Part shown: positions 3,463-39,642 of the stretch, in pieces | How the letters are laid out: each line of letters begins with the position of its first letter | Position numbering within the stretch: position 1 is the stretch's first letter | From: a virus | Strand: one strand, 5' to 3' | Length of the DNA stretch: 39,642 nt | IMG/VR virus record: IMGVR_UViG_3300021255_000026 | Made by a program: the position numbers and the translations under genes | Notes under the pieces: model-generated | Seen by the model: the letters and a program-made list of their open reading frames with translations, nothing else | Told to the model about the DNA's origin: nothing | Databases searched by the model: none

Positions 3463-4856
3463 AGTTTACACCGTACGACTATCAAAAAACGGCGATCCGT
3501 TGGATCCTGACAAAAGAACGTTGCGGCCTGTTTCTGGATATGGGATTGGGTAAGACGGTAAGCACACTAACAGCAGTACAGGATATGATCGACGATTGCG
3601 AGATTACAAACGCGTTGGTAGTGGCCCCAAAGAAAGTTGCCGAAACGACGTGGACGACGGAGGCCCAAAAGTGGGATCATTTGCAGAGCCTAAAGGTTGC
3701 AAAGGTGATGGGCACAGAGAAACAACGTAAATTGGCGTTGCAGTCAAAGGCCGACGTTTACGTTATCGGACGCGATAGTTTTGTTTGGTTGGTTGGCCTG
3801 TATGGCGGAATGTTACCGTTTGACGTACTGATTATCGACGAACTCACAAGTTTTAAGAGCGCGAAGAGTAACCGGTTTAAGGCAATGAGAATGGCAACGC
3901 CGACAGTTAAACGGGTGATCGGGTTAACCGGTACGCCGGCCCCTAATGGCTTAATCGATCTTTGGGCACAGATGTATTGTATCGATATGGGCGAGCGTCT
4001 GGGTAAGTCGATAACGAAGTACAGGGAAACGTATTTTGAGACGCACAAGTGGAACAACATTATAGTACGTTGCGATGTTAAAAAAGGGTGCGACGACGTG
4101 ATACGTAAGAAGATCGCCGACATTTGTCTATCAATGCAGGCAAAGGATTATTTACAGTTGCCGGATATGTTAACCCACGTCGTTAAGGTTGAGTTATCGC
4201 CGGCAATGATGAAGCAATACACCACGTTTGAAAAGGAAAAGGTTTTGGAGTTTGCCGAGGAACACGCCGGCGAATCTGCAAACATATTGGCCAACAGCGC
4301 GGCCGGCCTGATGAATAAGTTAAGCCAATTCGCCAACGGTGCAATATACGACGAAGATCGTAACGTACACCATATACACGACGAAAAGTTGGATAAGTTG
4401 GCCGAGATCATAGAAGCCGCAAACGGTAACAACGTATTGGTATTCTATCAGTATAAACACGATATAGACAGGATCCGCCACAAACTCAAAGAGTACACCG
4501 TTAAGGCATACGAGGGAGAGGCACAGTTAAAAGAGTGGAACGCCGGAAAGATCGACGTACTATTGGCACACCCGGCGAGTACGGCGTTTGGCCTGAATAT
4601 GCAAGCCGGAGGCCATTATATCGTATGGTTTGGCACGGGGTGGAATCTGGAGTTATACCAACAGGCAAACGCCCGATTGCACAGACAGGGCCAACAGTAC
4701 CCGGTACAGGTGTACAAACTGATAACGGCAAACACCGTGGACGAGAGGGCAAACGCCGCGTTGGATAACAAGAAAGGCGTACAACAGTCTTTATTAGATA
4801 GTCTTAATTACCTGATCCGTAAGCACAGCGCAGAGGACAAAAACATTGAGTTATGA
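3459..4856 (+). CDS. SNF2/DEAD-like helicase
   Basis: Motifs present are GLGKT (I), IIDELTSF (II), LTGTPAPNG (III) and QANARLHRQGQ (VI). The ATG at 3459 overlaps the upstream stop (ATGA) and follows AGGAGG, so it is preferred to the track start at 3432. Confidence 0.9.
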   Translation: MKFTPYDYQKTAIRWILTKERCGLFLDMGLGKTVSTLTAVQDMIDDCEITNALVVAPKKVAETTWTTEAQKWDHLQSLKVAKVMGTEKQRKLALQSKADVYVIGRDSFVWLVGLYGGMLPFDVLIIDELTSFKSAKSNRFKAMRMATPTVKRVIGLTGTPAPNGLIDLWAQMYCIDMGERLGKSITKYRETYFETHKWNNIIVRCDVKKGCDDVIRKKIADICLSMQAKDYLQLPDMLTHVVKVELSPAMMKQYTTFEKEKVLEFAEEHAGESANILANSAAGLMNKLSQFANGAIYDEDRNVHHIHDEKLDKLAEIIEAANGNNVLVFYQYKHDIDRIRHKLKEYTVKAYEGEAQLKEWNAGKIDVLLAHPASTAFGLNMQAGGHYIVWFGTGWNLELYQQANARLHRQGQQYPVQVYKLITANTVDERANAALDNKKGVQQSLLDSLNYLIRKHSAEDKNIEL

Positions 4857-23780: not shown

Positions 23781-24830
23781 ATGAATAGTGCAAGTACAAC
23801 CAGAACGATTAAGTTTATCAGTAAGGCCGGAACCTATACGGCCCTGATAATGAGCCCGTCCGGCGATCTGTACCAAGAATGGGAGGGAACGCAGAACGAC
23901 GTAACTAAAATTTTCCCGAATTACGAAAGCGTTAAACCGGTTTTGTACTTCGTTTGTACGTCGAGCCGAGTAGCCGAGGGCGTGGCCACACCGGACGCGA
24001 TCGATTACTATTTCAACGGTACAAAGATAACGTGGAGTGGTGACACGTCAACCGGTACGTTTAACGGAATGTTTAAGAAAGTGGCCCCATCGGGTGACAA
24101 CCTGTATTATGGTATTCAGATCGTTAAAAATCTCGTATCGGCCGCCGGTTTCGCGCCCGCCGTTATTAAGATGGTGGCCACGATCTCGTACGGTACACAG
24201 AGCGACCAGATCCAAGCCGAGTACACAATACCAATACAGCAGGCAACCGGCAGCAGTTACCGCGTTACTATTGCCGCCGGCGATAACAAGAATTTCGTTA
24301 TTACCGAAAAGGGCGGATCCTGTATTTTGCGCGCGTTGGCCTATCAGTCGGGCAGCCAACTTACGGCCGATCTGACGTACCAATGGGAGAAACTTAACGC
24401 CTCAACGTGGACGGTGATCGCAGGCCAGACAGGCGCAACCCTGACAGTCAACGAGGCCGATATTAACACGTACGGGGAGTACAGGTTAACCGTATTCCGT
24501 GGAGGCGCAGAGATCGGTAAGGACATACAAGGCGTTATGGACGCGTCGGATCCTTTCGACATCGATCCACACCCCAACCCCGAAGATGAAGCGATTACAG
24601 AAGATACCAACGGCAACGGTACAGTTACCTATACGCCGGTAGTGGTTAAGCGTGGAACAAGTACACAGGCACTTACGACAACGTTTTACTTTGTCGTCAA
24701 GGACGCGGCCGGCGTTTTCCTCAACAGCCAGAGCGACAGAACAACACCGGTTGCAAGTTACAGCGTTACACGCGCCCATTGTCAGCAGGCAGGCGGCGAC
24801 GTATCGGTTACGATAACATCAGTTGATTAG
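23781..24830 (+). CDS. Hypothetical tail-module protein (beta-rich, possibly Ig-like)
   Basis: ORF in the tail gene series. No diagnostic motif. Confidence 0.5.
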   Translation: MNSASTTRTIKFISKAGTYTALIMSPSGDLYQEWEGTQNDVTKIFPNYESVKPVLYFVCTSSRVAEGVATPDAIDYYFNGTKITWSGDTSTGTFNGMFKKVAPSGDNLYYGIQIVKNLVSAAGFAPAVIKMVATISYGTQSDQIQAEYTIPIQQATGSSYRVTIAAGDNKNFVITEKGGSCILRALAYQSGSQLTADLTYQWEKLNASTWTVIAGQTGATLTVNEADINTYGEYRLTVFRGGAEIGKDIQGVMDASDPFDIDPHPNPEDEAITEDTNGNGTVTYTPVVVKRGTSTQALTTTFYFVVKDAAGVFLNSQSDRTTPVASYSVTRAHCQQAGGDVSVTITSVD

Positions 24831-24833
24831 CGT

Positions 24834-26576
24834 ATGACAGTAGTAACCAGAGTTGTTAAGTATATCCGCAAAGGTACGGGCGTGGCTCGTACCGAAGCGG
24901 AATACGCCGACAGTACAAGCAACACCACGGCCCCGACGACCGGGTGGAACACCGTACCGCCGACGTGGCAAAACGGGCACTATATTTGGCAGAGAATTAA
25001 AACCGTATTCACGGATAATTCCTATACGTATAGTAACGCAGTTTGTATTACCGGCGGTAAAGGCATATCGTCAGTAACGGAGCATTATTTGGCCACGGCT
25101 GCAAGTTCAGGCGTTACCAAAAATACGTCCGGATGGAGTACGACGGTACAAACCGTTACGTCCACAAACAAATATCTTTGGAATTACGAAACCGTAACCT
25201 ATACAGACGGTACAACGTCGGACACCACGCCAACGATCATCGGTACTTACGGCGATAAGGGCGATAAAGGCGATAAGGGAAACAAAGGCGATAAGGGTAA
25301 TACCGGCGACACAGGTAACGGTATCTCTTCGATCACAGAGCATTATTTAGCCACGTCTGCAAGTTCAGGCGTTACCAAAAATACGTCTGGGTGGACTACA
25401 TCGATCCAAAGCGTCACGGCGACAAAAAAGTACCTTTGGAACTACGAAACCGTGACCTATACAGACGGTACAACGTCGGACACCACACCGATTATTATTG
25501 GCGTATATGGTGACAAAGGTGACAAAGGCGATAAGGGCGACAAAGGCGACAAAGGCGATAAGGGCGACAAAGGAGAAAAAGGCCCATCGTTGAGGATCCA
25601 AGATTGGGCCGATTGCCCGACAAGCGCGTATTTCTATGCCGGCAAAGATGGTGAGGCGTACAAAGACGTTGTGATATATAACGGCAATTATTACAGTTGT
25701 ACGCAGACACACAGCAAGCAATCGGGTGTATTGCCCACCAACTCAAATTATTGGGTATTGGGTGATAAGATCGAGTTAGTCGCCACAAACGTACTGTTGG
25801 CCACGTATTCCCTCATTAAGAATTTGGGAGCCGAGGCAATCGAGATGAAAGACAGCAACGGCAACGTTGTATTTTCTGCAAAGAATGGTACGGTAACGTG
25901 TAATACCGGCAATTTCAATAATGTAACTGTGTCCGGTACTCTTTCAGGCGTTACCGGTAGTTTTAAGACGTTAAATTGCGTAAACGCGTCCGGTACTGTT
26001 GTCGGTAAGATCTCGTTTGGTAGTGATGGCAAAATGTGGTTTGAGGGTGATTTGTATAATCAGGGTTACGATAGTACGTTGGGCCGTGGTTATCGCTTTT
26101 ATTCATCCGATATTTGGTGTCGTGGCGGTTTTGGGGCCAGAGAGCGAAACGTTTTATATGTTTTGGGATCGTACGGGTATTATTACACCAAAGGCACGGG
26201 ATCGTCCGGCGTTTACGTATCGTTTACGTCGGCCACGTCGTCAGGTGGAGATACATATTATACGCTCAAATGTTACGGCGATAGTGGCGATTATGCCGGT
26301 TTCCCTGTTGATATGATTATCTTTAAGATAACAGGATCCACAGCGTACCGGTATAACCTAAGTATGGCAGATACACAACGCGTTTTATGTATCAATGCAA
26401 ACGATGATGAGAATAACGTTATAATTTACTCAAATGGTAATCAAGTAACGTGGAACGGCGGAAGCGTCGCAGAGGTAATAAAAGTACCAACCGACTTTAT
26501 GTACCCAACGCCTAACAGTTCGTGGTTAGGCCGTGGTATTCTTATTGGCGCAGTTAGAGATAATAATTGGGGATAA
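24834..26576 (+). CDS. Tail fibre with collagen-like (G-D/N-K)n repeats and a duplicated 86-aa module
   Basis: Two GDKGDKGDKG... tracts are present. The GISS[VI]TEHYLAT..SSGVTKNTSGW...KYLWNYETVTYTDGTTSDTTP module occurs twice. Confidence 0.75.
   Translation: MTVVTRVVKYIRKGTGVARTEAEYADSTSNTTAPTTGWNTVPPTWQNGHYIWQRIKTVFTDNSYTYSNAVCITGGKGISSVTEHYLATAASSGVTKNTSGWSTTVQTVTSTNKYLWNYETVTYTDGTTSDTTPTIIGTYGDKGDKGDKGNKGDKGNTGDTGNGISSITEHYLATSASSGVTKNTSGWTTSIQSVTATKKYLWNYETVTYTDGTTSDTTPIIIGVYGDKGDKGDKGDKGDKGDKGDKGEKGPSLRIQDWADCPTSAYFYAGKDGEAYKDVVIYNGNYYSCTQTHSKQSGVLPTNSNYWVLGDKIELVATNVLLATYSLIKNLGAEAIEMKDSNGNVVFSAKNGTVTCNTGNFNNVTVSGTLSGVTGSFKTLNCVNASGTVVGKISFGSDGKMWFEGDLYNQGYDSTLGRGYRFYSSDIWCRGGFGARERNVLYVLGSYGYYYTKGTGSSGVYVSFTSATSSGGDTYYTLKCYGDSGDYAGFPVDMIIFKITGSTAYRYNLSMADTQRVLCINANDDENNVIIYSNGNQVTWNGGSVAEVIKVPTDFMYPTPNSSWLGRGILIGAVRDNNWG
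25062..25583 (+). repeat. Tandem duplication with a 258-bp period inside the fibre gene, each unit ending in 9-bp GGCGAYAAR repeats
   Basis: Unit 1 starts at 25062 (ggcatatcgtcagtaacggagcattattt) and unit 2 at 25320 (ggtatctcttcgatcacagagcattattt). Identity read by eye is high. Confidence 0.85.
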
Positions 26577-26597
26577 ATTTTTTAAATTCTTAGAGTT

Positions 26598-27365
26598 ATG
26601 ACAAAGCAAACAAAGAAACTGCAAGCCGGATCGTCCAAATCGACGACAACGGTAGCAAACGGCGAGGAATTTGTTAAGGTGAACACCAACGGTTTAGTAA
26701 CCACTATCCCGCTCGCGTACCTGAAAGCCGCCGTTTTGGGCGGTATGGATCTTAACGCAATGGAGGACGGTATATTTATTATGTACCACCGAAAGAGCGA
26801 CAATTTCCCTCTTATGGTTAAGCCCCACAAGTGGACGAGCATACAGGCAGGCGGCGAAGTGGCCGACGGCGTGGTGATCGTTGAGGGCGGTAAGATGTTG
26901 GTTGTAGCACCCACACAGACCGCGTTAACGTGGAGTAGCGCAGCAGTAAGCGGCGGCGGTACGACAACAGGCGATCGCGTAACAGCGTTTAACGATTTCA
27001 ACGGTAAGCAGAACACAGCAAGCCAGATAACGCACGCCGAATGTAACAGCGCGTCGTACGCGCCCGGCTATTGTGCGCAGTACAGCCGTACCAACGCCAA
27101 CGGTTACGGCCTGACAGCCGGCAAATGGTGGTTGCCCTCAATGGGTGAAATGATGATGATATACGCCAATATGACAAAAGTCAATTACGCGTTATCCCTG
27201 ATCACCGGTGCAACGCCGTTGGAAGAGAATTGGTATTGGACAAGTACCGAGTACTCCGCGGCGTACGCGTGGTATCTGTACCTCATCAGTGGCATCGCCA
27301 GCTACTACGGCGCTAAGGCGGCGGGCACGTACAGAGTTAGGCCGGTGTCAGCGTTTATTGCTTAG
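26598..27365 (+). CDS. DGR target protein, C-type-lectin-fold / DUF1566-like variable protein, last gene of the tail module
   Basis: The C terminus GKWWLPSMGEMMMIY...NWYWTSTEY...YRVRPVSAF resembles DUF1566/CLec DGR targets. The last 109 nt before the final 11 nt form the VR. Confidence 0.85.
   Translation: MTKQTKKLQAGSSKSTTTVANGEEFVKVNTNGLVTTIPLAYLKAAVLGGMDLNAMEDGIFIMYHRKSDNFPLMVKPHKWTSIQAGGEVADGVVIVEGGKMLVVAPTQTALTWSSAAVSGGGTTTGDRVTAFNDFNGKQNTASQITHAECNSASYAPGYCAQYSRTNANGYGLTAGKWWLPSMGEMMMIYANMTKVNYALSLITGATPLEENWYWTSTEYSAAYAWYLYLISGIASYYGAKAAGTYRVRPVSAFIA
27246..27354 (+). repeat. DGR variable repeat (VR)
   Basis: It aligns to 27913-28018. There are 17 substitutions, all opposite TR adenines, plus one extra codon. 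The invariant 3-prime segment is agagttaggccggtgtcagcgt. Confidence 0.9.
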
Positions 27366-27391
27366 TAATTAATGTTTAATATTTAATCATT

Positions 27392-27411
27392 GGTACGGCG
27401 AAAGCCGTACC
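27392..27411 (+). promoter_or_regulatory. Hairpin downstream of the VR (8-bp GC-rich stem, GAAA loop), candidate DGR target-recognition element and/or terminator
   Basis: The sequence is ggtacggc-gaaa-gccgtacc, 26 nt after the target gene stop codon. No equivalent follows the TR. Confidence 0.55.
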
Positions 27412-27429
27412 TTTACCGAAGATCCGGAA

Positions 27430-27792
27430 ATGGCAGAAAACAAAATCAAATTGGTATCAAACGCCCCGTTGTATTTGGACGTACGAAAGTTGTTAGGTGA
27501 GATATTGGACGTAACGCCGGAATTTCCCCGGCAGTATAAGTTTAGTATCGGATCCAAGATGCACGAATTAACCGTGGATCTGTTGCAACACGTCGCGGCG
27601 GCCTATATGGATCGGCCCAACAGGGACAGACACCTAACGGAATTTAAGGCCAAATTTGAGACGCTTAAAACCTTAGTCCGGATCGCCGGCGAAAGAAGAT
27701 GGATAAAAGGATTGGGGCGGCACGCGCAGATCATAGAGTTAATGGACACGATCGGCAAACAAAGTACAGCGTGGAAAAACTCGCCTAAGTAG
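27430..27792 (+). CDS. avd: Avd-like accessory variability determinant (four-helix-bundle protein)
   Basis: 120 aa, basic and predicted helical. It lies between the VR and the TR, as avd does in Bordetella phage BPP-1. Confidence 0.75.
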   Translation: MAENKIKLVSNAPLYLDVRKLLGEILDVTPEFPRQYKFSIGSKMHELTVDLLQHVAAAYMDRPNRDRHLTEFKAKFETLKTLVRIAGERRWIKGLGRHAQIIELMDTIGKQSTAWKNSPK

Positions 27793-27912
27793 CGAGAAAG
27801 CCAGAATCGGATCGGTTACGACTGACCGAGAGCGCAGTTTTCCGTAATAAACGGGGCCTGTACCGTCATTCACGGTTAAGAGTAAGATAATCAGGCCACA
27901 GATTGCGAGCCA

Positions 27913-28018
27913 ACCGAGAACTCCGCGACGAACGCGTGGAATCTGAACCTCAACAATGGCAACGCCAACAACAACACTAAGGCAACGAACACGAACAGAG
28001 TTAGGCCGGTGTCAGCGT
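27913..28018 (+). repeat. DGR template repeat (TR)
   Basis: Adenine-rich, with many AAC/AAT codons in the VR frame (TENSATNAWNLNLNNGNANNNTKATNTNRVRPVSA). It lies immediately upstream of the RT gene. Confidence 0.9.
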
Positions 28019-28051
28019 ATCTTACGGGAACGAAACGAAGTATATAAAAAT

Positions 28052-29233
28052 ATGGTAACATTATCTGGGTTATTGGAAGCGTATTACGATTGTAGGCGTA
28101 ACAAACGGCATACAGCGAGCGCGATTGTTTACGAAATGGATTACGAGAGCAAGTTAATTGCCCTACGTGACCGGGTAAACGCGCGTACCTATCAGCCCGG
28201 TAAATCCATTTGTTTTGTCGTGACGCGGCCACGCTATCGAGAAGTGTTTGCCGCCTCATTTGAGGATCGTATAATACACCATTATATCGCTTTACGGTTG
28301 GAGCCGTTATTTGAGCAAGTATTTTGCGATCGTACGTTTAATTGCAGAAAGGAAAAAGGGCAACTGTACGGCGTGCAGATCCTTAAAAACGATCTGATCG
28401 AAATAAGCCAGAATTATACGCGCGATTGTTACATAATGAAATTGGATCTTTCCGGTTTCTTTATGAGTATAGACAAAGATCTGTTAGCCGGTAAGATCGC
28501 CCGGTTTGTCGCTGATTACTACGAGGGCGACGACAAAGAGGATCTGATCAGGCTTTGCCAGATCGTCGTATTACACCGGCCGGAGTTGAATTGTGAGAGA
28601 CACAGCCCGGCGGAATATTGGAATTATTTACCGGCTAACAAATCCCTGTTTACTAACGGAGAGGGCAAGGGCGTTGCGATCGGCAACCTATTTGCTCAAC
28701 TTTTCGCAAATTTCCTGTTAAACGATTTGGATTGGTTTATCGAGGATCTGGGTATAAAATACCACGGCCGATACGTGGACGATTTTTATATGATCCACGA
28801 AGATAAAGAAACCCTGTTGGGCGCAGTACCGAAGATCCGCGAGAAGTTGGCCACGTTGGGCCTGAAACTAAACGAGAAAAAGTTTTATTTGCAGCACTAT
28901 ACAAAGGGCGTTGAGTTTACCGGATCAATCGCAAAGCCCGGCCGCGTTTACACCTGTAATCGTACGATCGCCAACTTTGTATCGGCGGTTATGCAATTCA
29001 ATTTGGCGAAGAATATCCGGGAGATCCGCCACGGCGTTTGCCGGATCAATTCATATTTAGGGCTGTTGAGGCATACCAACGAATACGGTATGCGCCGTAA
29101 GATCTTAGATATGATCGACAGGAGCAAATACGAATACGTCTATATCAAAGGACGTTACGAGATATTGAGTTTGAAACGTAAGTACAACCAAAGGCACGAA
29201 ACATATAAAAGAATAAGAGATGGCGATTATTGA
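28052..29233 (+). CDS. DGR reverse transcriptase
   Basis: Motifs are FEDRIIHH, KLDLSGFFMSID, IGNLFAQLFANFLLNDLD and YVDDF. The ATG at 28052 (MVTLSGLLEAYYDCRRNK) is preferred to the track start at 27956, which lies inside the TR. Confidence 0.9.
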   Translation: MVTLSGLLEAYYDCRRNKRHTASAIVYEMDYESKLIALRDRVNARTYQPGKSICFVVTRPRYREVFAASFEDRIIHHYIALRLEPLFEQVFCDRTFNCRKEKGQLYGVQILKNDLIEISQNYTRDCYIMKLDLSGFFMSIDKDLLAGKIARFVADYYEGDDKEDLIRLCQIVVLHRPELNCERHSPAEYWNYLPANKSLFTNGEGKGVAIGNLFAQLFANFLLNDLDWFIEDLGIKYHGRYVDDFYMIHEDKETLLGAVPKIREKLATLGLKLNEKKFYLQHYTKGVEFTGSIAKPGRVYTCNRTIANFVSAVMQFNLAKNIREIRHGVCRINSYLGLLRHTNEYGMRRKILDMIDRSKYEYVYIKGRYEILSLKRKYNQRHETYKRIRDGDY

Positions 29234-29369
29234 GGTACAACCAGAGGCCCCGATCACGTTACGCGTTGACGTTATCGATATGGGGCTTTTACACCTATTG
29301 GAATCCCGGTACGTGGTTTTGATAGAGCAACGCGAAAACGATATTGTTATTGAACTCTATAAAAAGTAA
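29220..29369 (+). CDS. Small hypothetical ORF (49 aa)
   Basis: Hand translation gives MAIIEVQPEAPITLRVDVIDMGLLHLLESRYVVLIEQRENDIVIELYKK. It overlaps the RT stop by 14 nt. Confidence 0.25.
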   Translation: MAIIEVQPEAPITLRVDVIDMGLLHLLESRYVVLIEQRENDIVIELYKK

Positions 29370-29373
29370 TGTT

Positions 29374-29736
29374 ATGGACTACTCAAACATCATTGAATTA
29401 GCGGCCGCGATGGGTACGGCGATCGGCGGTTGGGAATTTATTAAGTATATGCTTAATATCCGTACTAACAAACGTAAGGAGAAATCGGAGGCCGATAAGG
29501 CACAATCCGAGGCCAAAAGCGAGGACTTTAAGGTATTGCGCGAAACCACGGAGTTTTTGCAGCAACAATTAAAGGACAAAGAGGAACGTTTTGCAAGTCA
29601 GACAGACCGGCTTAGAAAGGTACAGGACGATTATTTTGAGTTGTTACAGAAGAACGCCCAAACAGAGTTGGATTTGCAGCGTTTTCGATGTGTGCGCCCT
29701 AAATGCGCACAAAGAGAACCAAAAAACGGATATTGA
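29374..29736 (+). CDS. Membrane-anchored coiled-coil protein, possible holin or lysis accessory
   Basis: The ATG at 29374 (MDYSNIIELAAAMGTAIGGWEFIKYML) gives one N-terminal hydrophobic helix and then a charged coiled coil. It lies directly upstream of the endolysin gene. Confidence 0.4.
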   Translation: MDYSNIIELAAAMGTAIGGWEFIKYMLNIRTNKRKEKSEADKAQSEAKSEDFKVLRETTEFLQQQLKDKEERFASQTDRLRKVQDDYFELLQKNAQTELDLQRFRCVRPKCAQREPKNGY

Positions 29737-29763
29737 TTAATAACCCCTAAAACATTTATTATT

Positions 29764-30339
29764 ATGGCAAGATGTGAGAATTTAGTACGGTTTATCCTGA
29801 AATGGGAAACCGGTGTATCAGACGAAAGAATGGCAAACGAGCCCCTGTTTGAAAAAGCCAAGAAAAAAGGCTTTGCCAACGATCCGTCAGATCTGGGAGG
29901 CGCGACAATGTGCGGTATTACCCTAAAGACGTACACAGAGTATCGTAAGCGTAAGGGCCTGACAAAACCAACAGTCGAGGATCTGAAAGCCATATCGTAC
30001 GGCGAATGGCTCGAAGTACTTAAAACGATGTTCTGGGATCGATGGAAAGCCGACCAGATCCAAAACCAGAGCGTCGCCAATTTCTTAGTCGATTGGGTAT
30101 GGTCAAGCGGCGTTTACGGTATCAAGTTACCACAAAAAGTACTTAACGTATCGATCGACGGCGTGGTTGGCCCCAAGACGCTTGCAGCCATTAACGAAAA
30201 GGATCCGGCGATTGTGTTTGGCCTGATGAAGCAGGAGCGTATCGACTATACGGAAAGGATCTGCAAGAGCCGGGCCCAAAACCGGAAATTCCGTACCGGA
30301 TGGCTCAACCGTATTAACGATCTGAAATACAAACCTTAA
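29764..30339 (+). CDS. Endolysin, GH108-like muramidase with a PG_binding_3-like C terminus
   Basis: The motifs are WETG...NDPSDLGGATMCGITL and DGVVGPKTLAAIN. Confidence 0.85.
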   Translation: MARCENLVRFILKWETGVSDERMANEPLFEKAKKKGFANDPSDLGGATMCGITLKTYTEYRKRKGLTKPTVEDLKAISYGEWLEVLKTMFWDRWKADQIQNQSVANFLVDWVWSSGVYGIKLPQKVLNVSIDGVVGPKTLAAINEKDPAIVFGLMKQERIDYTERICKSRAQNRKFRTGWLNRINDLKYKP

Positions 30340-30350
30340 ATCCGGAGCGT

Positions 30351-30887
30351 ATGAAATATTTTGAGCGACAGTTAGGCACAGTTATTGCGATCATACTAAT
30401 TGCGATCTGTATTTGGTTTCTTTGCGGGTGCAAGGCGAAACAGACGGTTATCAAAGAGACCGTGGAAACGATCACCACAGACACCACAAAGACGACAACG
30501 GACAGTACGGCCGTTGAGATCAATATAACGGACACCACCAAGACAGAGACAACCGGAGGCGATAGCCTGATGATCGAGTTTGTCGATACCGGCGGATCCG
30601 TAACGATAGACAGTACCGGGGCCGTAACGCTTACAGGCGTTAAGGCTATTCGGGCCGGTGCAGTTTGGCAACAGAAACAGCAGGCCGGACGTACCGAGAC
30701 CGGAAAGACCGTTGAGACCGGAAAGAAAGAAGATAAGGGAATTTCGGCAAAGGAAAACAGGCGCACCGAAAAAGCCGAGAAAGCCGCCCGGCGTTGGTAC
30801 GAAAACGTACTTATCCGGATCGGAGGGCTTTGTTGTATCGCCGTTATTATCTGGGCCCTATTCCTTTATATCAAGCGTAAATTTTAA
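30351..30887 (+). CDS. Unimolecular spanin candidate (N-terminal lipoprotein signal plus C-terminal transmembrane helix)
   Basis: The N terminus has a lipobox-like IAICIWFLCGC, the middle is Thr-rich, and the C terminus IRIGGLCCIAVIIWALFLYIKRKF is hydrophobic. It lies directly after the endolysin gene. Confidence 0.55.
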   Translation: MKYFERQLGTVIAIILIAICIWFLCGCKAKQTVIKETVETITTDTTKTTTDSTAVEINITDTTKTETTGGDSLMIEFVDTGGSVTIDSTGAVTLTGVKAIRAGAVWQQKQQAGRTETGKTVETGKKEDKGISAKENRRTEKAEKAARRWYENVLIRIGGLCCIAVIIWALFLYIKRKF

Positions 30888-30968: not shown

Positions 30969-32210
30969 CTATATGTTAAGAAATTCGTTTTTCTTTAACA
31001 CGTAATCGATCACTTTACGATTAGCCGCGTCCACTTTATCCCTGTTGTACTTAATATATACACCCGTCACCTTTGCGCCGTGAGAGTGGCCCAACGCTTC
31101 GCTAATCGTATCTTTGGGTATATCCAGATCGGCGGCGTACGTAGCCCACGAATAACGGGCCCAATACAGGGATAACGATTTTTCCAAAGGATCCATTTTT
31201 ATTTGCCCGTTACCGAACTTAACAGGATCGCCGTTTTTGTCGAGGGCCGGCGGCCCGATCCGGGTAAGGGCGTTATCGACTGTACCCTGATACGCTTTGT
31301 AATTGTGGTAATTATCGAAATGCCGGATAAGGTGCTTTGTACCCCTGTACCGGTTAATGATTTCCCACGCTTCGGGCTCGATCTTGATACTGTACAGTTT
31401 GCCGGTTTTGGCACGCCGGTATTCTATACGGCCGTTAACGATGTTATCGTTTGTCAGGCGCGAAAGATCGACGGTATTTATCCCGATCAGGTAAAACGTT
31501 AGCATAAATATATCTTGATACTCTTTATATTTATAGTGCAACGTCAGATCCCGGAATTGGCGCAGTTTCTCAATCGGCAAAACTCGCATACGCGTTTCTT
31601 CTGTTTTGATCCGGTAATGCCTGAATGGATCGTTAGCCGTCAGATCCCGATCGAGGGCGTAATTAACGGCCCGCTTTACAACCTTAACGTACGCGGCGCG
31701 GGTATTAACGGACGCGTCGGCCATTGAGGTAATAAAATCGTCGATCCACGCCGGCGTTATATCCTCACAATATACCTTAGAGGGATCGCCGATATATTTT
31801 TTAAGTCGCTCGATCGCGCTTTTGGCGATATACTTAGTATTATCCGCCCGGCCGTCCAAAGTACGTTGGATCAGATCGTACAGGGATGGAACGCCAACCG
31901 TCGGTTTTTTGAGATCCAGACGTGTAAGCATTTCCCGGAGTTGGGCCCGTGATAGTTTCGGCCATTGGCCGTTTTCTTTCAATTCCAAGATCCGGTTTGT
32001 TACGGTAGTCAATAAAGCCGTGAGGGTATCGTTAACGCGCTTTGCACCTTTGCCCGTACAGATCCGCGCGCGATCGTCCCAATCGGAGCCGGTAAGATAT
32101 ACGCCTGTATTCAGGTAGATATTAGTACCGTGGCCGACAACGATCTGTACCGGGTACGTACCATCTTTAAGGGCCCGCCGTTTGTCGAGGCGTAACGTAG
32201 ATCGTGCCAT
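30969..32210 (-). CDS. int: Tyrosine integrase with an N-terminal arm-binding domain (Bacteroidota phage/CTn type)
   Basis: 413 aa. The N terminus is LDKRRALKDGTYPVQIVV, and the C-terminal catalytic region is ARYSWATYA...LGHSHGAKVTGVYIKY. Confidence 0.9.
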   Translation of the reverse strand: MARSTLRLDKRRALKDGTYPVQIVVGHGTNIYLNTGVYLTGSDWDDRARICTGKGAKRVNDTLTALLTTVTNRILELKENGQWPKLSRAQLREMLTRLDLKKPTVGVPSLYDLIQRTLDGRADNTKYIAKSAIERLKKYIGDPSKVYCEDITPAWIDDFITSMADASVNTRAAYVKVVKRAVNYALDRDLTANDPFRHYRIKTEETRMRVLPIEKLRQFRDLTLHYKYKEYQDIFMLTFYLIGINTVDLSRLTNDNIVNGRIEYRRAKTGKLYSIKIEPEAWEIINRYRGTKHLIRHFDNYHNYKAYQGTVDNALTRIGPPALDKNGDPVKFGNGQIKMDPLEKSLSLYWARYSWATYAADLDIPKDTISEALGHSHGAKVTGVYIKYNRDKVDAANRKVIDYVLKKNEFLNI

Positions 32211-39534: not shown

Positions 39535-39544
39535 GGGGGGGGGG
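39535..39544. repeat. G10 homopolymer at the contig junction
   Basis: Ten consecutive G. The left end of the window starts inside the same run (nine G). Confidence 0.9.
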
Positions 39545-39642
39545 ACGAAGTAAAAGAAGTAAAAAACAAGCGTAAGAGATCCAAGAAATGAAAGTAAAGG
39601 TTTGCCGTACTTGTATAGCGTATGATCCGGACGATGAAACGC
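39536..39642. repeat. Right copy of the 107-bp direct terminal overlap
   Basis: Identical to 1-107. Confidence 0.95.

Follow-up and report, generated by a model that had tools for sequence, protein, structure and literature searches.

The closest described relatives of the locus analyzed here are the diversity-generating retroelements (DGRs) of Bacuni F1, F2, and F4 (MT635598, MT806186, and MT806185), phages of Bacteroides uniformis that are also siphoviruses of ~40 kb with a recombinase (Hedzet et al., 2021; PMC8143477). Their local gene order, which they share with the present locus, runs from the tail genes through a 253–255-aa DUF1566 target, bAvd, TR, and RT to the lysis genes and the recombinase, and VR encodes the last ~35 residues of the target in both. 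Bacuni phages with almost no differences outside VR infect different strains of B. uniformis (PMC8143477), and the DGRs of Bacuni-like phages are thought to drive host-range switching. The Bordetella phage BPP-1 (mtd-avd-TR-brt) likewise has the same gene order, A-specific mutagenesis, and an Avd. The same class of VR and the same avd-TR-RT core are found with LdtA of Legionella pneumophila and other ‘category d’ DUF1566/CLec2 targets (Wu et al., 2018; PMC5758913), about half of which are short proteins that consist of DUF1566 only (PMC5758913).

The window analyzed herein is the whole stretch of 39,642 nucleotides in IMG/VR virus record IMGVR_UViG_3300021255_000026, and it represents a ~39.5-kb, siphovirus-like phage of Bacteroidales of the ruminant gut, the lineage originating from ruminant-gut metagenomes. 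The phage is temperate, with an integrase gene at 30969–32210, and no tRNAs were found in the window. With an RT that is 62–66% and a target that is 65–66% identical to those of Bacuni F1, F2, and F4, the proteins of the DGR region (62–66%) and the local gene order suggest that this is a Bacuni-like Bacteroidales siphovirus. The sequence of the VR hairpin and the RNA leader described below are also the same as in the Bacuni phages. At the nucleotide level, however, there is no similarity to them (megablast of 24800–30400), and the same search against deposited phages gave only a 35-nt chance match, so the window has no close nucleotide relative among deposited phages. A further difference is that the Bacuni phages have a second VR or a second DUF1566 gene, whereas searches of the window genome with A>N patterns of TR, blastn-short, and tblastn found neither. 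Since Bacuni F1, F2, and F4 have the same cassette, the window is a further case of a known type. What is new is the ruminant-gut branch of the Bacuni-like Bacteroidales phages, the kind of cassette having already been published.

Organization of the Cassette

We regard positions 26598–29233 as very probably a complete, population-active DGR with the architecture target-avd-TR-RT, which is the best explanation overall. A preliminary description had proposed a complete DGR in the gene order of BPP-1; the order is confirmed from the open reading frames and domain searches, and every defining feature that could be tested is present. The genes and repeats are as follows.

24834..26576, + strand: collagen-like tail-fiber gene, directly 5' of the target
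26598..27365, + strand: DGR target gene, 255 aa, with an N-terminal domain and a DUF1566/Lcl_C C-type-lectin-like domain; last gene of the tail module
27246..27354, + strand: VR, 109 nt, codons 217–252 of 255
27300..27311, + strand: four NNC codons (AGC TAC TAC GGC) opposite the (AAC)3 of TR, a one-codon insertion in VR
27340..27361, + strand: IMH-like end of VR, a 15-mer shared with TR and then 7 nt that diverge (TTATTGC in VR, ATCTTAC in TR)
27430..27792, + strand: avd (accessory variability determinant), 120 aa
27913..28018, + strand: TR, 106 nt with 37 A; (AAC)3 at 27967–27975 and an IMH*-like end at 28004–28018
28052..29233, + strand: DGR reverse transcriptase (RT), 393 aa

A computed alignment of the two repeats, for which the preliminary description had called, reproduces both the coordinates and the 17 A-only substitutions that it had reported (18 with some equally valid gap placements). 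All of the mismatches are at TR adenines and none is at a TR C, G, or T. For 17 random mismatches to fall on A every time (37 A in 106 TR bases) the probability is 8e-10. The TR and VR translations given earlier are both identical to ours, and the AAC/AAT-rich design ascribed to TR is evident in its codons, which include 10 AAC and 2 AAT, with 34 of the 37 adenines at codon positions 1–2. VR occupies the 3' end of the 255-aa reading frame (26598–27365) and is in frame with it, and the 12 AAY and 4 ACN codons could generate at least ~3e16 protein variants, without stop codons.

At the sequence level the repeats end in the manner of IMH and IMH*, with a shared GC-rich segment, the 15-mer GGCCGGTGTCAGCGT that is identical in VR (27340–27354) and TR (28004–28018), and then sequence that distinguishes VR from TR. 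By analogy with BPP-1 (PMC5758913; PMC3240598), we infer that the end of VR may serve as the IMH. The last 22 nt of the repeat had been described as invariant, which is correct within the window but not among near-identical phages, where the adenines of AGA and AGG change (AGA>AGG in L061 and AGG>TGG in L062). Within the 15-mer itself no A-site changes were seen in the near-identical phages, and there is a single non-A change (CCG>GCG in L063).

The product of avd matches Pfam bAvd (1e-22; 81 bits against a cut-off of 40) and PHROG 3206 (‘Avd protein of DGR’), with a score of 41 bits to NCBIfam DivGenRetAVD, which is under the 80-bit equivalog cut-off. The gene adjoins TR and RT, an arrangement that corresponds to architecture B1. 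The RT matches Pfam RVT_1 and PHROG 1423 (1e-74), and it begins at the ATG at 28052 and not at the ATG within TR (27956), public gene calls likewise giving 393 aa. Its best relative in the PDB, and hence the closest solved one, is the RT of BPP-1 (Bordetella bRT, 8ub7; 1.2e-22, 83.8 bits), compared with 37.7 bits (E 1e-8) for a group II intron RT. Residues R74, I181, and Q187 of bRT are conserved in the window RT, including the mutagenesis determinants R74 and I181. The NCBIfam models for group II, retron, and Drt RTs all scored far below their cut-offs and NCBIfam has no DGR-RT model, so this resource could not place the RT. In RTs of the DGR clade the signature [I/V/L]GxxxSQ replaces QGxxxSP (PMC7826257). 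The corresponding motif here is IGNLFAQ, in which the I and Q are present and S is replaced by A, whereas it is IGNLFSQ in sister lineages and in the Bacuni phages; the catalytic motif is YVDD.

Length Variation in VR

VR is one codon longer than TR, and the alignment gap falls only within the AAC tract, where the four NNC codons of VR face AAC AAC AAC in TR. The repeat coordinates in the preliminary description imply this difference, on which its text is silent. Among 12 near-identical phage genomes, half (6) have a VR with four codons opposite a three-codon TR, and the extra codon is always of the form NNC (GGC, ATC, TAC, or TTC). DGR indels in multiples of three opposite AAC repeats are known in related lineages and have been attributed to slippage (PMC5758913), and the four-codon VRs in six of the 12 genomes fit such known RT slippage on AAC repeats. 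We propose that the RT would slip on the (AAC)3 tract and thereby provide about half of the VR alleles with one extra randomized codon. Frequent in-frame length change of VR is a feature of the window lineage that sets it apart from BPP-1. A preference for GGC as the inserted codon, which would have implied a special mechanism, appeared in the first seven cases and was lost with more alleles (GGC, GGC, ATC, TAC, TTC, GGC); it was rejected.

The length difference might also be a relic, in that an ancestral TR with four AAC codons lost one of them and the four-codon VRs have been incompletely overwritten, although we consider this unlikely. All of the four-codon VRs could in principle come from one ancestor, and partial rewriting is possible since the 5' integration of cDNA can fall inside VR (PMC5758913). 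However, TR contains (AAC)3 in all 12 of the close genomes and in nearly all of the distant relatives examined, with RTs as little as ~60% identical, the TR sequence at this position being different in the L010/L044 lineage. Moreover, VRs that differ from TR by +3 (L008, L018, and L019), +6 (L003), and −3 (L004/L005) are scattered among these (AAC)3 relatives, and two genomes with 99% identical RTs differ in VR length (+3 in L001 and 0 in L002). The four-codon alleles also vary among themselves both 5' and 3' of the tract, one of them (L001) bears the newer TR marker (TTT CGA), and an extra codon that is always NNC is what would be expected if it were templated by AAC. Slippage on (AAC)3 is the reading that we prefer.

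The Target Protein and Its Role

The target had been described as a 255-aa protein with a DUF1566/C-type-lectin-like C terminus that follows a collagen-like fiber gene, and both parts of this description are borne out. The target matches Pfam Lcl_C (2.5e-9, above the gathering score) over a domain that includes VR, and the product of the upstream gene matches Pfam Collagen and tail-fiber PHROGs and contains GDK-type tandem repeats. Structure prediction, which had been suggested as a check on the C terminus, gave an AF2 model with a pLDDT of 93.9 (from a 76-sequence alignment with 50%-cluster representatives; a first AlphaFold run with 60 close homologues had a pLDDT of 51 and was discarded), and the model matches DUF1566 C-type-lectin-like folds. 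According to Foldseek, the best solved match is the fimbrial protein BACOVA_04982 of B. ovatus (4eps), which is also the published Phyre2 match of the Bacuni target (PMC8143477), and the C-terminal domain of Legionella Lcl (8q4e) was matched as well. Overall, the model most strongly matches phage tail-fiber/DUF1566 proteins, in their C-terminal parts (E 1e-12). The target of BPP-1 differs in having the Mtd fold, that of the window being of the DUF1566/Lcl_C (CLec2) class.

Lcl provides a useful comparison, as it combines a collagen-like stalk and a trimeric DUF1566 head in one protein, whereas the phage fiber and DUF1566 protein are encoded by separate genes, and Lcl, unlike the window target, is not diversified by a DGR. 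When the two are aligned, the residues opposite the ligand-binding lysines of Lcl (PMC11162425) are in the part of the target that is encoded by VR, and most of these positions are variable. Specifically, the four GAG-binding lysines of the Lcl upper surface align with target Y219, I230, S235, and ~242 (PMC11162425), where Y219, I230, and S235 are VR-variable, as is G243 adjoining ~242. The diversified residues would then be on the putative ligand-binding face of the DUF1566 (C-type-lectin-like) domain.

The position of the gene, the fold matches to tail-fiber C termini, and the tropism of the Bacuni phages argue well for the target being the receptor-binding tip. Within the virion, this small protein most likely forms the distal tip of the collagen-like tail fiber, and the element would therefore vary host-receptor recognition. 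A distinctly less probable proposition, and one that accepts the DGR as real, is that the target is a lysogenic-conversion or host-surface protein that is diversified for the benefit of the lysogen, similar to LdtA or the Bacteroides fimbrial-tip targets. Such a role would suit a temperate phage whose target has a bacterial fimbrial protein (4eps) as its best solved structural match, and DUF1566 DGR targets are frequent on bacterial surfaces. Yet LdtA, a lipoprotein of the bacterial surface, has a secretion signal, whereas the N terminus of the window target, read directly from the sequence, has neither a signal peptide nor a lipobox. In addition, the gene has the same orientation as the tail module, of which it is the last member, and it directly follows the fiber gene; the strongest fold matches are to phage tail fibers, and host range tracks the VR differences in the Bacuni phages.

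Population Variation and Activity

Across the 12 near-identical phage genomes the 106-nt TR is almost invariant but there are 12 different VRs. The mismatches total 192 at TR adenines and 9 at non-A positions, and the polymorphic sites include 32 of the 37 A but only 8 of the 69 non-A positions. The substitutions comprise 101 A>G, 69 A>T, and 22 A>C. Hence, VR polymorphism is nearly confined to A-templated sites, the outcome that the preliminary description had proposed to look for, and a near-constant TR together with 12 VRs and a ratio of 192 to 9 indicates that the element is active in the population. Ongoing mutagenic retrohoming, with VR varying and TR constant, is the process to which these sequences point, as judged indirectly from the variation between assemblies. 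(One candidate from the metagenome pattern scan, L036, was left out as a chance 19-mer match that is not a DGR.) The same contrast is seen at the protein level in the 90% cluster of the target (73 members, 16 aligned), where there is hardly any variation in residues 1–216 but hypervariability at the VR positions.

Point variants of TR are mirrored in VR in four of five cases (AAT CGA in L001, L002, and L064, and GAT in L063), and information must therefore have been transferred from TR to VR after these lineages diverged. In L058 the 3' marker of VR is mismatched to the TR of the same genome, which means that VR or TR alleles are also exchanged by recombination between phages.

It is very unlikely that the element in the window genome is a recently inactivated fossil, with the VR diversity having been made earlier or in sister phages. 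The replacement of S by A in the RT signature motif is unusual and would fit such a loss of function, but the IGNLFAQ form of the RT is common to all 12 of the genomes with different VRs. Every open reading frame is intact, including the catalytic YVDD of the RT, and the TR/VR pair of the window has no non-A differences, which decay would have added. Finally, an ordinary duplication or gene-conversion tract with a coincidental A bias, for which there is nothing beyond the presence of a direct repeat, can be dismissed, being refuted by the computed alignments of the window alone (P 8e-10) and of the population (192 versus 9), and by the avd and DGR-type RT genes that flank the repeat. The many near-identical assemblies represent a convenient natural data set for the DGR substitution spectrum, the error rate at non-A positions, and the frequency of in-frame insertion at AAC.

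The Recipient Site and a Proposed Mechanism

Surveys differ on how common a GC-rich inverted repeat shortly downstream of VR is among DGRs, with figures from a minority to a majority. The window contains one such feature.

27392..27411, + strand: hairpin/cruciform, GGTACGGC GAAA GCCGTACC, with a GC-rich 8-bp stem and a GAAA loop, 37 nt after VR

As folded DNA the hairpin has an energy of −9.9 kcal/mol (z −4.4), and none of 200 shuffles was as good. It is present in all 21 of the relatives examined, 26–42 nt after VR, with compensatory changes in the stem. The loops are GNNA tetraloops (GAAA, GGTA, GCAA, or GGAA) in 19 of the 21, the other two being CGAA (L027) and a loop of 7 nt (L026). The published target-site hairpin of DGRs has a GC stem of 7–10 bp and a 4-nt GRNA loop (PMC3240598), which the window hairpin matches, and in BPP-1, too, a GC-rich IMH-like segment precedes an 8-bp hairpin whose loop is GAAA.

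We propose that a complex of RT and Avd would bind the TR-containing RNA and that TR would be copied to cDNA with random nucleotides inserted opposite the template adenines. This cDNA would then take the place of VR in the 3' end of the target gene, where two features, the IMH-like GC-rich 15-mer and, downstream of VR, the hairpin with the GAAA loop, presumably mark the recipient. In DGRs, the cDNA is cis-primed and its synthesis depends on Avd, with nucleotides misincorporated opposite adenine.

An RNA Leader and a Helix That Closes TR

The region between avd and TR is predicted to encode a structured RNA, the helices of which are as follows.

27798..27899, + strand: structured RNA leader between avd and TR, with helices P0, P2, and P3 and the 5' strand of P1 (RNAalifold)
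27800–01/27834–35, 27807–10/27826–29, and 27814–16/27821–23, + strand: P0, with a UACG loop
27839–27847 (TTTCCGTAA) with 28022..28030 (TTACGGGAA), + strand: P1, a long-range helix that closes TR into a loop
27855–59/27893–97, + strand: P2 (RNAalifold)
27862–66/27872–76, + strand: P3 (RNAalifold)

P1 was found de novo by RNAalifold with 8–9 double compensatory changes per pair. Pair counts on the alignment (A5) give a value of 89% paired, with double changes in 22 of the 28 pairs, and none of 500 shuffles was as high; slid controls give 28–41%. A covariance model (R1) gives one match per related locus, always just 5' of TR. Rfam, searched over 26000–30000 with relaxed thresholds, gave no match, the leader included. 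Folded as a single sequence, the RNA of 27793–28051 scores no better than its shuffles (z −0.43), and P1 is absent from the fold; the RNA structure therefore rests on covariation only.

The placement of this RNA is a difference from BPP-1, where a 140-nt structured spacer 3' of TR holds the Avd-binding stem-loop, the strands of the primer and stop duplexes, and the RT-binding stem. In the window there are only 33 nt between TR and the RT gene, and a structured RNA of ~100–120 nt is instead located 5' of TR. About 70 DGRs with an Avd are known to be without a 3' stem-loop (Handa et al.). The elements of the leader have the same order as in the BPP-1 spacer (a tetraloop stem-loop, a duplex strand, an A-rich single strand, and a long interrupted stem), and a 9-nt segment shortly after TR is the pairing partner of the leader. 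[quoted passage not shown]

Our tentative suggestion, which we put forward as a possibility rather than as the expected outcome, is that the Bacuni-like lineage and its ruminant relatives use a permuted DGR RNA, with the structured part 5' of TR. If so, the leader would contain the priming nucleotide, the cDNA would form a branch on RNA that lies upstream of the template being copied, and the lineage would also be a natural system for (AAC)3 slippage, with length variation in about half of the alleles. The leader and P1 may show how cDNA is primed and terminated in DGRs with almost no 3' spacer, and a comparison of the two with the structure of the BPP-1 ribonucleoprotein would be testable.

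Two smaller pairings were also considered. A primer duplex between CUGAC in P0 and the invariant TCAGC of the TR end has no covariation and was rejected. P1 may be extended by 3 bp into the TR end (27851–53 with 28016–18), for which a single compensatory event, C/G here and U/A in all other lineages, provides a hint.

Adenine-Specific Variation in the Repeat Pair

The preliminary description identified a diversity-generating retroelement (DGR) in the window, and this finding is correct and its interpretation supported. In the computed alignment the variable repeat (VR, 27246-27354) is 109 nt and the template repeat (TR, 27913-28018) is 106 nt, and they differ by 17 mismatches with a single 3-nt gap (18 mismatches under some equally valid gap placements). 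All 17 fall at TR adenines and none at C, G or T, and since 37 of the 106 TR bases are A, the probability that 17 random mismatches would all be on A is 8e-10. The repeat coordinates, the count of 17 and its restriction to adenines, originally obtained by hand, are thus reproduced, and the TR and VR translations were exact. The last 22 nt, which had been considered invariant, are so in the window only, as adenines of AGA and AGG change in two related genomes (L061 and L062, respectively). The final GC-rich 15-mer, GGCCGGTGTCAGCGT, is common to TR and VR, beyond which the sequences read TTATTGC (VR) and ATCTTAC (TR); among 12 near-identical genomes it contains no A-site change and one non-A change (in L063).

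An RT-based scan of viral contigs yielded 32 related loci, and further loci came from a 19-mer metagenome scan and from look-ups of cluster members. In the 12 near-identical genomes the TR is always 106 nt (12/12) with three point variants only, and the 12 VRs are all different. Comparison of these assemblies bears out the expectation that population polymorphism is almost confined to A sites, with 192 mismatches between each VR and its own TR at A (A>G 101, A>T 69, A>C 22) versus nine elsewhere, and with 32/37 A sites polymorphic versus 8/69 non-A sites, which is indirect evidence that the DGR is active in this population. The TR point variants AAT CGA (genomes L001, L002, and L064) and GAT (L063) are mirrored in the VR, which indicates TR-to-VR transfer after the lineages diverged. 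In genome L058 the TR has AAT CGA and the VR has GGC AGA, in agreement with the other TR type, which points to either recombination among phages that circulate together or a TR that mutated later than the latest round of homing. At the protein level, the target falls in a 90% cluster with 73 members; an alignment of 16 sequences (15 of the listed members plus a close relative) shows hardly any variation over residues 1-216 and hypervariability at the positions templated by AAC, AAT or ACN.

The window VR exceeds the TR by one codon, a feature absent from the preliminary description. A gap that creates no non-A mismatch can be placed only within TR AAC AAC AAC (27967-27975), opposite which the VR has AGC TAC TAC GGC (27300-27311), and four NNC codons face three AAC codons in six of the 12 near-identical genomes. 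The (AAC)3 run is kept in the TR of almost all of the distant relatives examined, the L010/L044 lineage differing there, and their VRs may be longer than the TR by 3 nt (L008, L018, L019) or 6 nt (L003), or shorter by 3 nt at an AAC AAC doublet (L004/L005). Length differences between TR and VR occur in 7% of DGRs, 74% of these indels are next to AAC, and template slippage was given as the explanation (Wu et al., PMC5758913); the same model is cited by a 2026 study. A change in VR codon length is already a known DGR property and what is new here is its frequency only, about half of the alleles within one phage population. A large length mismatch of another kind is seen in locus L015, where the TR (roughly 3840-3930) contains a tandem duplication of ~45 nt (ACCAACGCGTGGAATTTGAACCTCAACAACGGCAACGCG twice) that is not in its VR.

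The Reverse Transcriptase and Accessory Protein

27430-27792, + strand: avd (bAvd, 81 bits versus a cut-off of 40; PHROG 'Avd protein of DGR')
28052-29233, + strand: reverse transcriptase, RT (Pfam RVT_1; PHROG 'Reverse transcriptase', 1e-74)
28679-28699: RT signature motif IGNLFAQ (RT residues 210-216)

Public gene calls on sister contigs place the RT start at ATG 28052 (393 aa) and not at the in-TR ATG 27956. Among solved structures its closest relative is Bordetella bRT (8ub7, E 1.2e-22), ahead of group II intron and retron-type RTs (1e-8 to 1e-6), and the RT falls far short of the cut-off of every NCBIfam model of the group II, retron and Drt classes. Residues R74 and I181 of bRT, shown to promote adenine mutagenesis, align with R63 and I210 of the window RT and are conserved, as is Q187. 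Sister lineages have the DGR motif [I/V/L]GxxxSQ as IGNLFSQ, and the window sub-lineage has it as IGNLFAQ (Ser>Ala), a form found alongside abundant VR diversity. Four loci with RTs of 59-60% identity (L021-L023, L025) retain avd-leader-TR-RT but have the target and VR downstream of the RT on the opposite strand, and hence cassette architecture changes within the RT clade.

Structured Elements Around the Repeats

27392-27411: hairpin 3' of the VR (perfect 8-bp stem, GAAA loop, 37 nt past the VR)

The DNA fold of this hairpin has an energy of -9.9 kcal/mol (z -4.4). A hairpin lies 26-42 nt past the VR in 21/21 relatives, with stems that differ in a compensating manner and loops of GAAA, GGTA, GCAA or GGAA in 19/21, the others being CGAA (L027) and a 7-nt loop (L026). 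It fits the DGR target-recognition hairpin as published (PMC3240598), which lies 4-34 bp away from the VR and has a GC stem of 7-10 bp and a GRNA loop of 4 nt.

The TR ends just 33 nt ahead of the RT start, whereas the spacer between avd and the TR is 120 nt long. Single-sequence folding of the TR-region RNA gave no signal, and RNAalifold with 22 relatives predicted several local helices within the avd-TR spacer together with a long-range helix between 27839-27847 (UUUCCGUAA) and 28022-28030 (UUACGGGAA), which has 8-9 double compensatory changes per pair. Across six helix segments, counted on a TR-deleted alignment, 89% of cells are paired and 22/28 pairs have changes on both sides, values that 0/500 shuffles reach, with slid controls at 28-41%. 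Each related locus has exactly one match to a covariance model of this leader, in every case immediately 5' of the TR, and this holds for loci outside the model's training set such as that of Bacuni_F1; the distant DGRs L050 and L027 match weakly, and nothing else in 549 kb does. No Rfam family matches the leader. In the window lineage only, the invariant leader motif AAAYGGGG has C at 27852 and the TR end CAGCRY has G at 28017, where other lineages have U and A, respectively, and this one compensatory event hints that the leader may also pair with the TR 3' end.

In phage BPP-1 the 3' spacer pairs with the TR end to form the primer duplex and with an upstream avd segment to form the cPRT Stop, and upstream/downstream duplexes are predicted in 207/278 Avd-type DGRs (bioRxiv 10.1101/2023.10.23.563531). 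The window long-range helix is of this upstream/downstream type and the leader elements have the same order as those of the BPP-1 spacer, but the structured RNA is mostly 5' of the TR whereas that of BPP-1 is the 3' spacer. We offer purely as a hypothesis that the window lineage might have a 'permuted DGR RNA'.

The Target Protein and the Tail

24834-26576, + strand: collagen-like fibre gene (GDK-type 9-nt repeat arrays at 25251-25302 and 25512-25583)
26598-27365, + strand: target ORF (255 aa; Pfam Lcl_C/DUF1566 above the gathering score)

Gene order and Pfam confirm the DUF1566 domain and the position of the target after the fibre gene, as the last gene of the tail module. A first structural model based on close homologues was unusable (pLDDT 51); one from a more diverse alignment reached pLDDT 93.9 and pTM 0.88. 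In the PDB, Foldseek matched it to the Bacteroides ovatus fimbrial protein BACOVA_04982 (4eps, probability 1.00) and to the C-terminal domain of Legionella Lcl (8q4e, probability 0.99), the latter in accord with the C-type-lectin-like C terminus proposed earlier. Among viral models the best matches are C-terminal parts of phage tail-fibre/DUF1566 proteins (E 1e-12, TM ~0.6). The Lcl domain is reported to be C-type-lectin-like and trimeric and binds glycosaminoglycans via K369, K380, K385, and K391 (PMC11162425), which in a profile alignment correspond to target Y219, I230, S235, and ~242; the first three are VR-variable, as is the neighbouring G243. The target N-terminus has no signal peptide and no lipobox. 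Given the fold matches, the lack of a secretion signal and the location of the gene, the target is best read as a receptor-binding protein at the tail tip.

The fibre gene contains a 258-nt internal duplication (25080-25549), and in near-identical phages the protein has 580, 579, 577, 574, 570, 560 or 353 aa. Repeats and differing lengths together indicate that fibre length varies by repeat number, which is a second, DGR-independent source of tail variation.

Relatives and Genome Context

Relatives occur in ruminant-gut assemblies, including long Cryptobacteroides contigs, with more distant ones in Prevotella (43% RT identity), and the host is therefore probably a Bacteroidales bacterium. The closest cultured relatives are the Bacteroides uniformis phages Bacuni F1, F2, and F4 (RT 62-66% and target 65-66% identical), which share the local gene order but have two targets where the window has one. 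A publication on these phages (PMC8143477) already describes the DGR, its DUF1566 target, the match to 4eps and a tropism linked to the VR, and the window DGR adds to an already known type of phage element.

Replication, packaging, head, tail, lysis and integrase genes are present in the window, in which no tRNA genes were found. Downstream of the DGR are:

29764-30339: GH108/PG_binding_3 endolysin
30351-30887: Thr-rich protein (hydrophobic N- and C-terminal segments; no family match)
30969-32210, - strand: tyrosine integrase

Bases 1-108 are repeated exactly at 39535-39642, which indicates that the phage genome, of ~39.5 kb, is essentially complete and either circular or terminally redundant. 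The window opens with a run of nine G.
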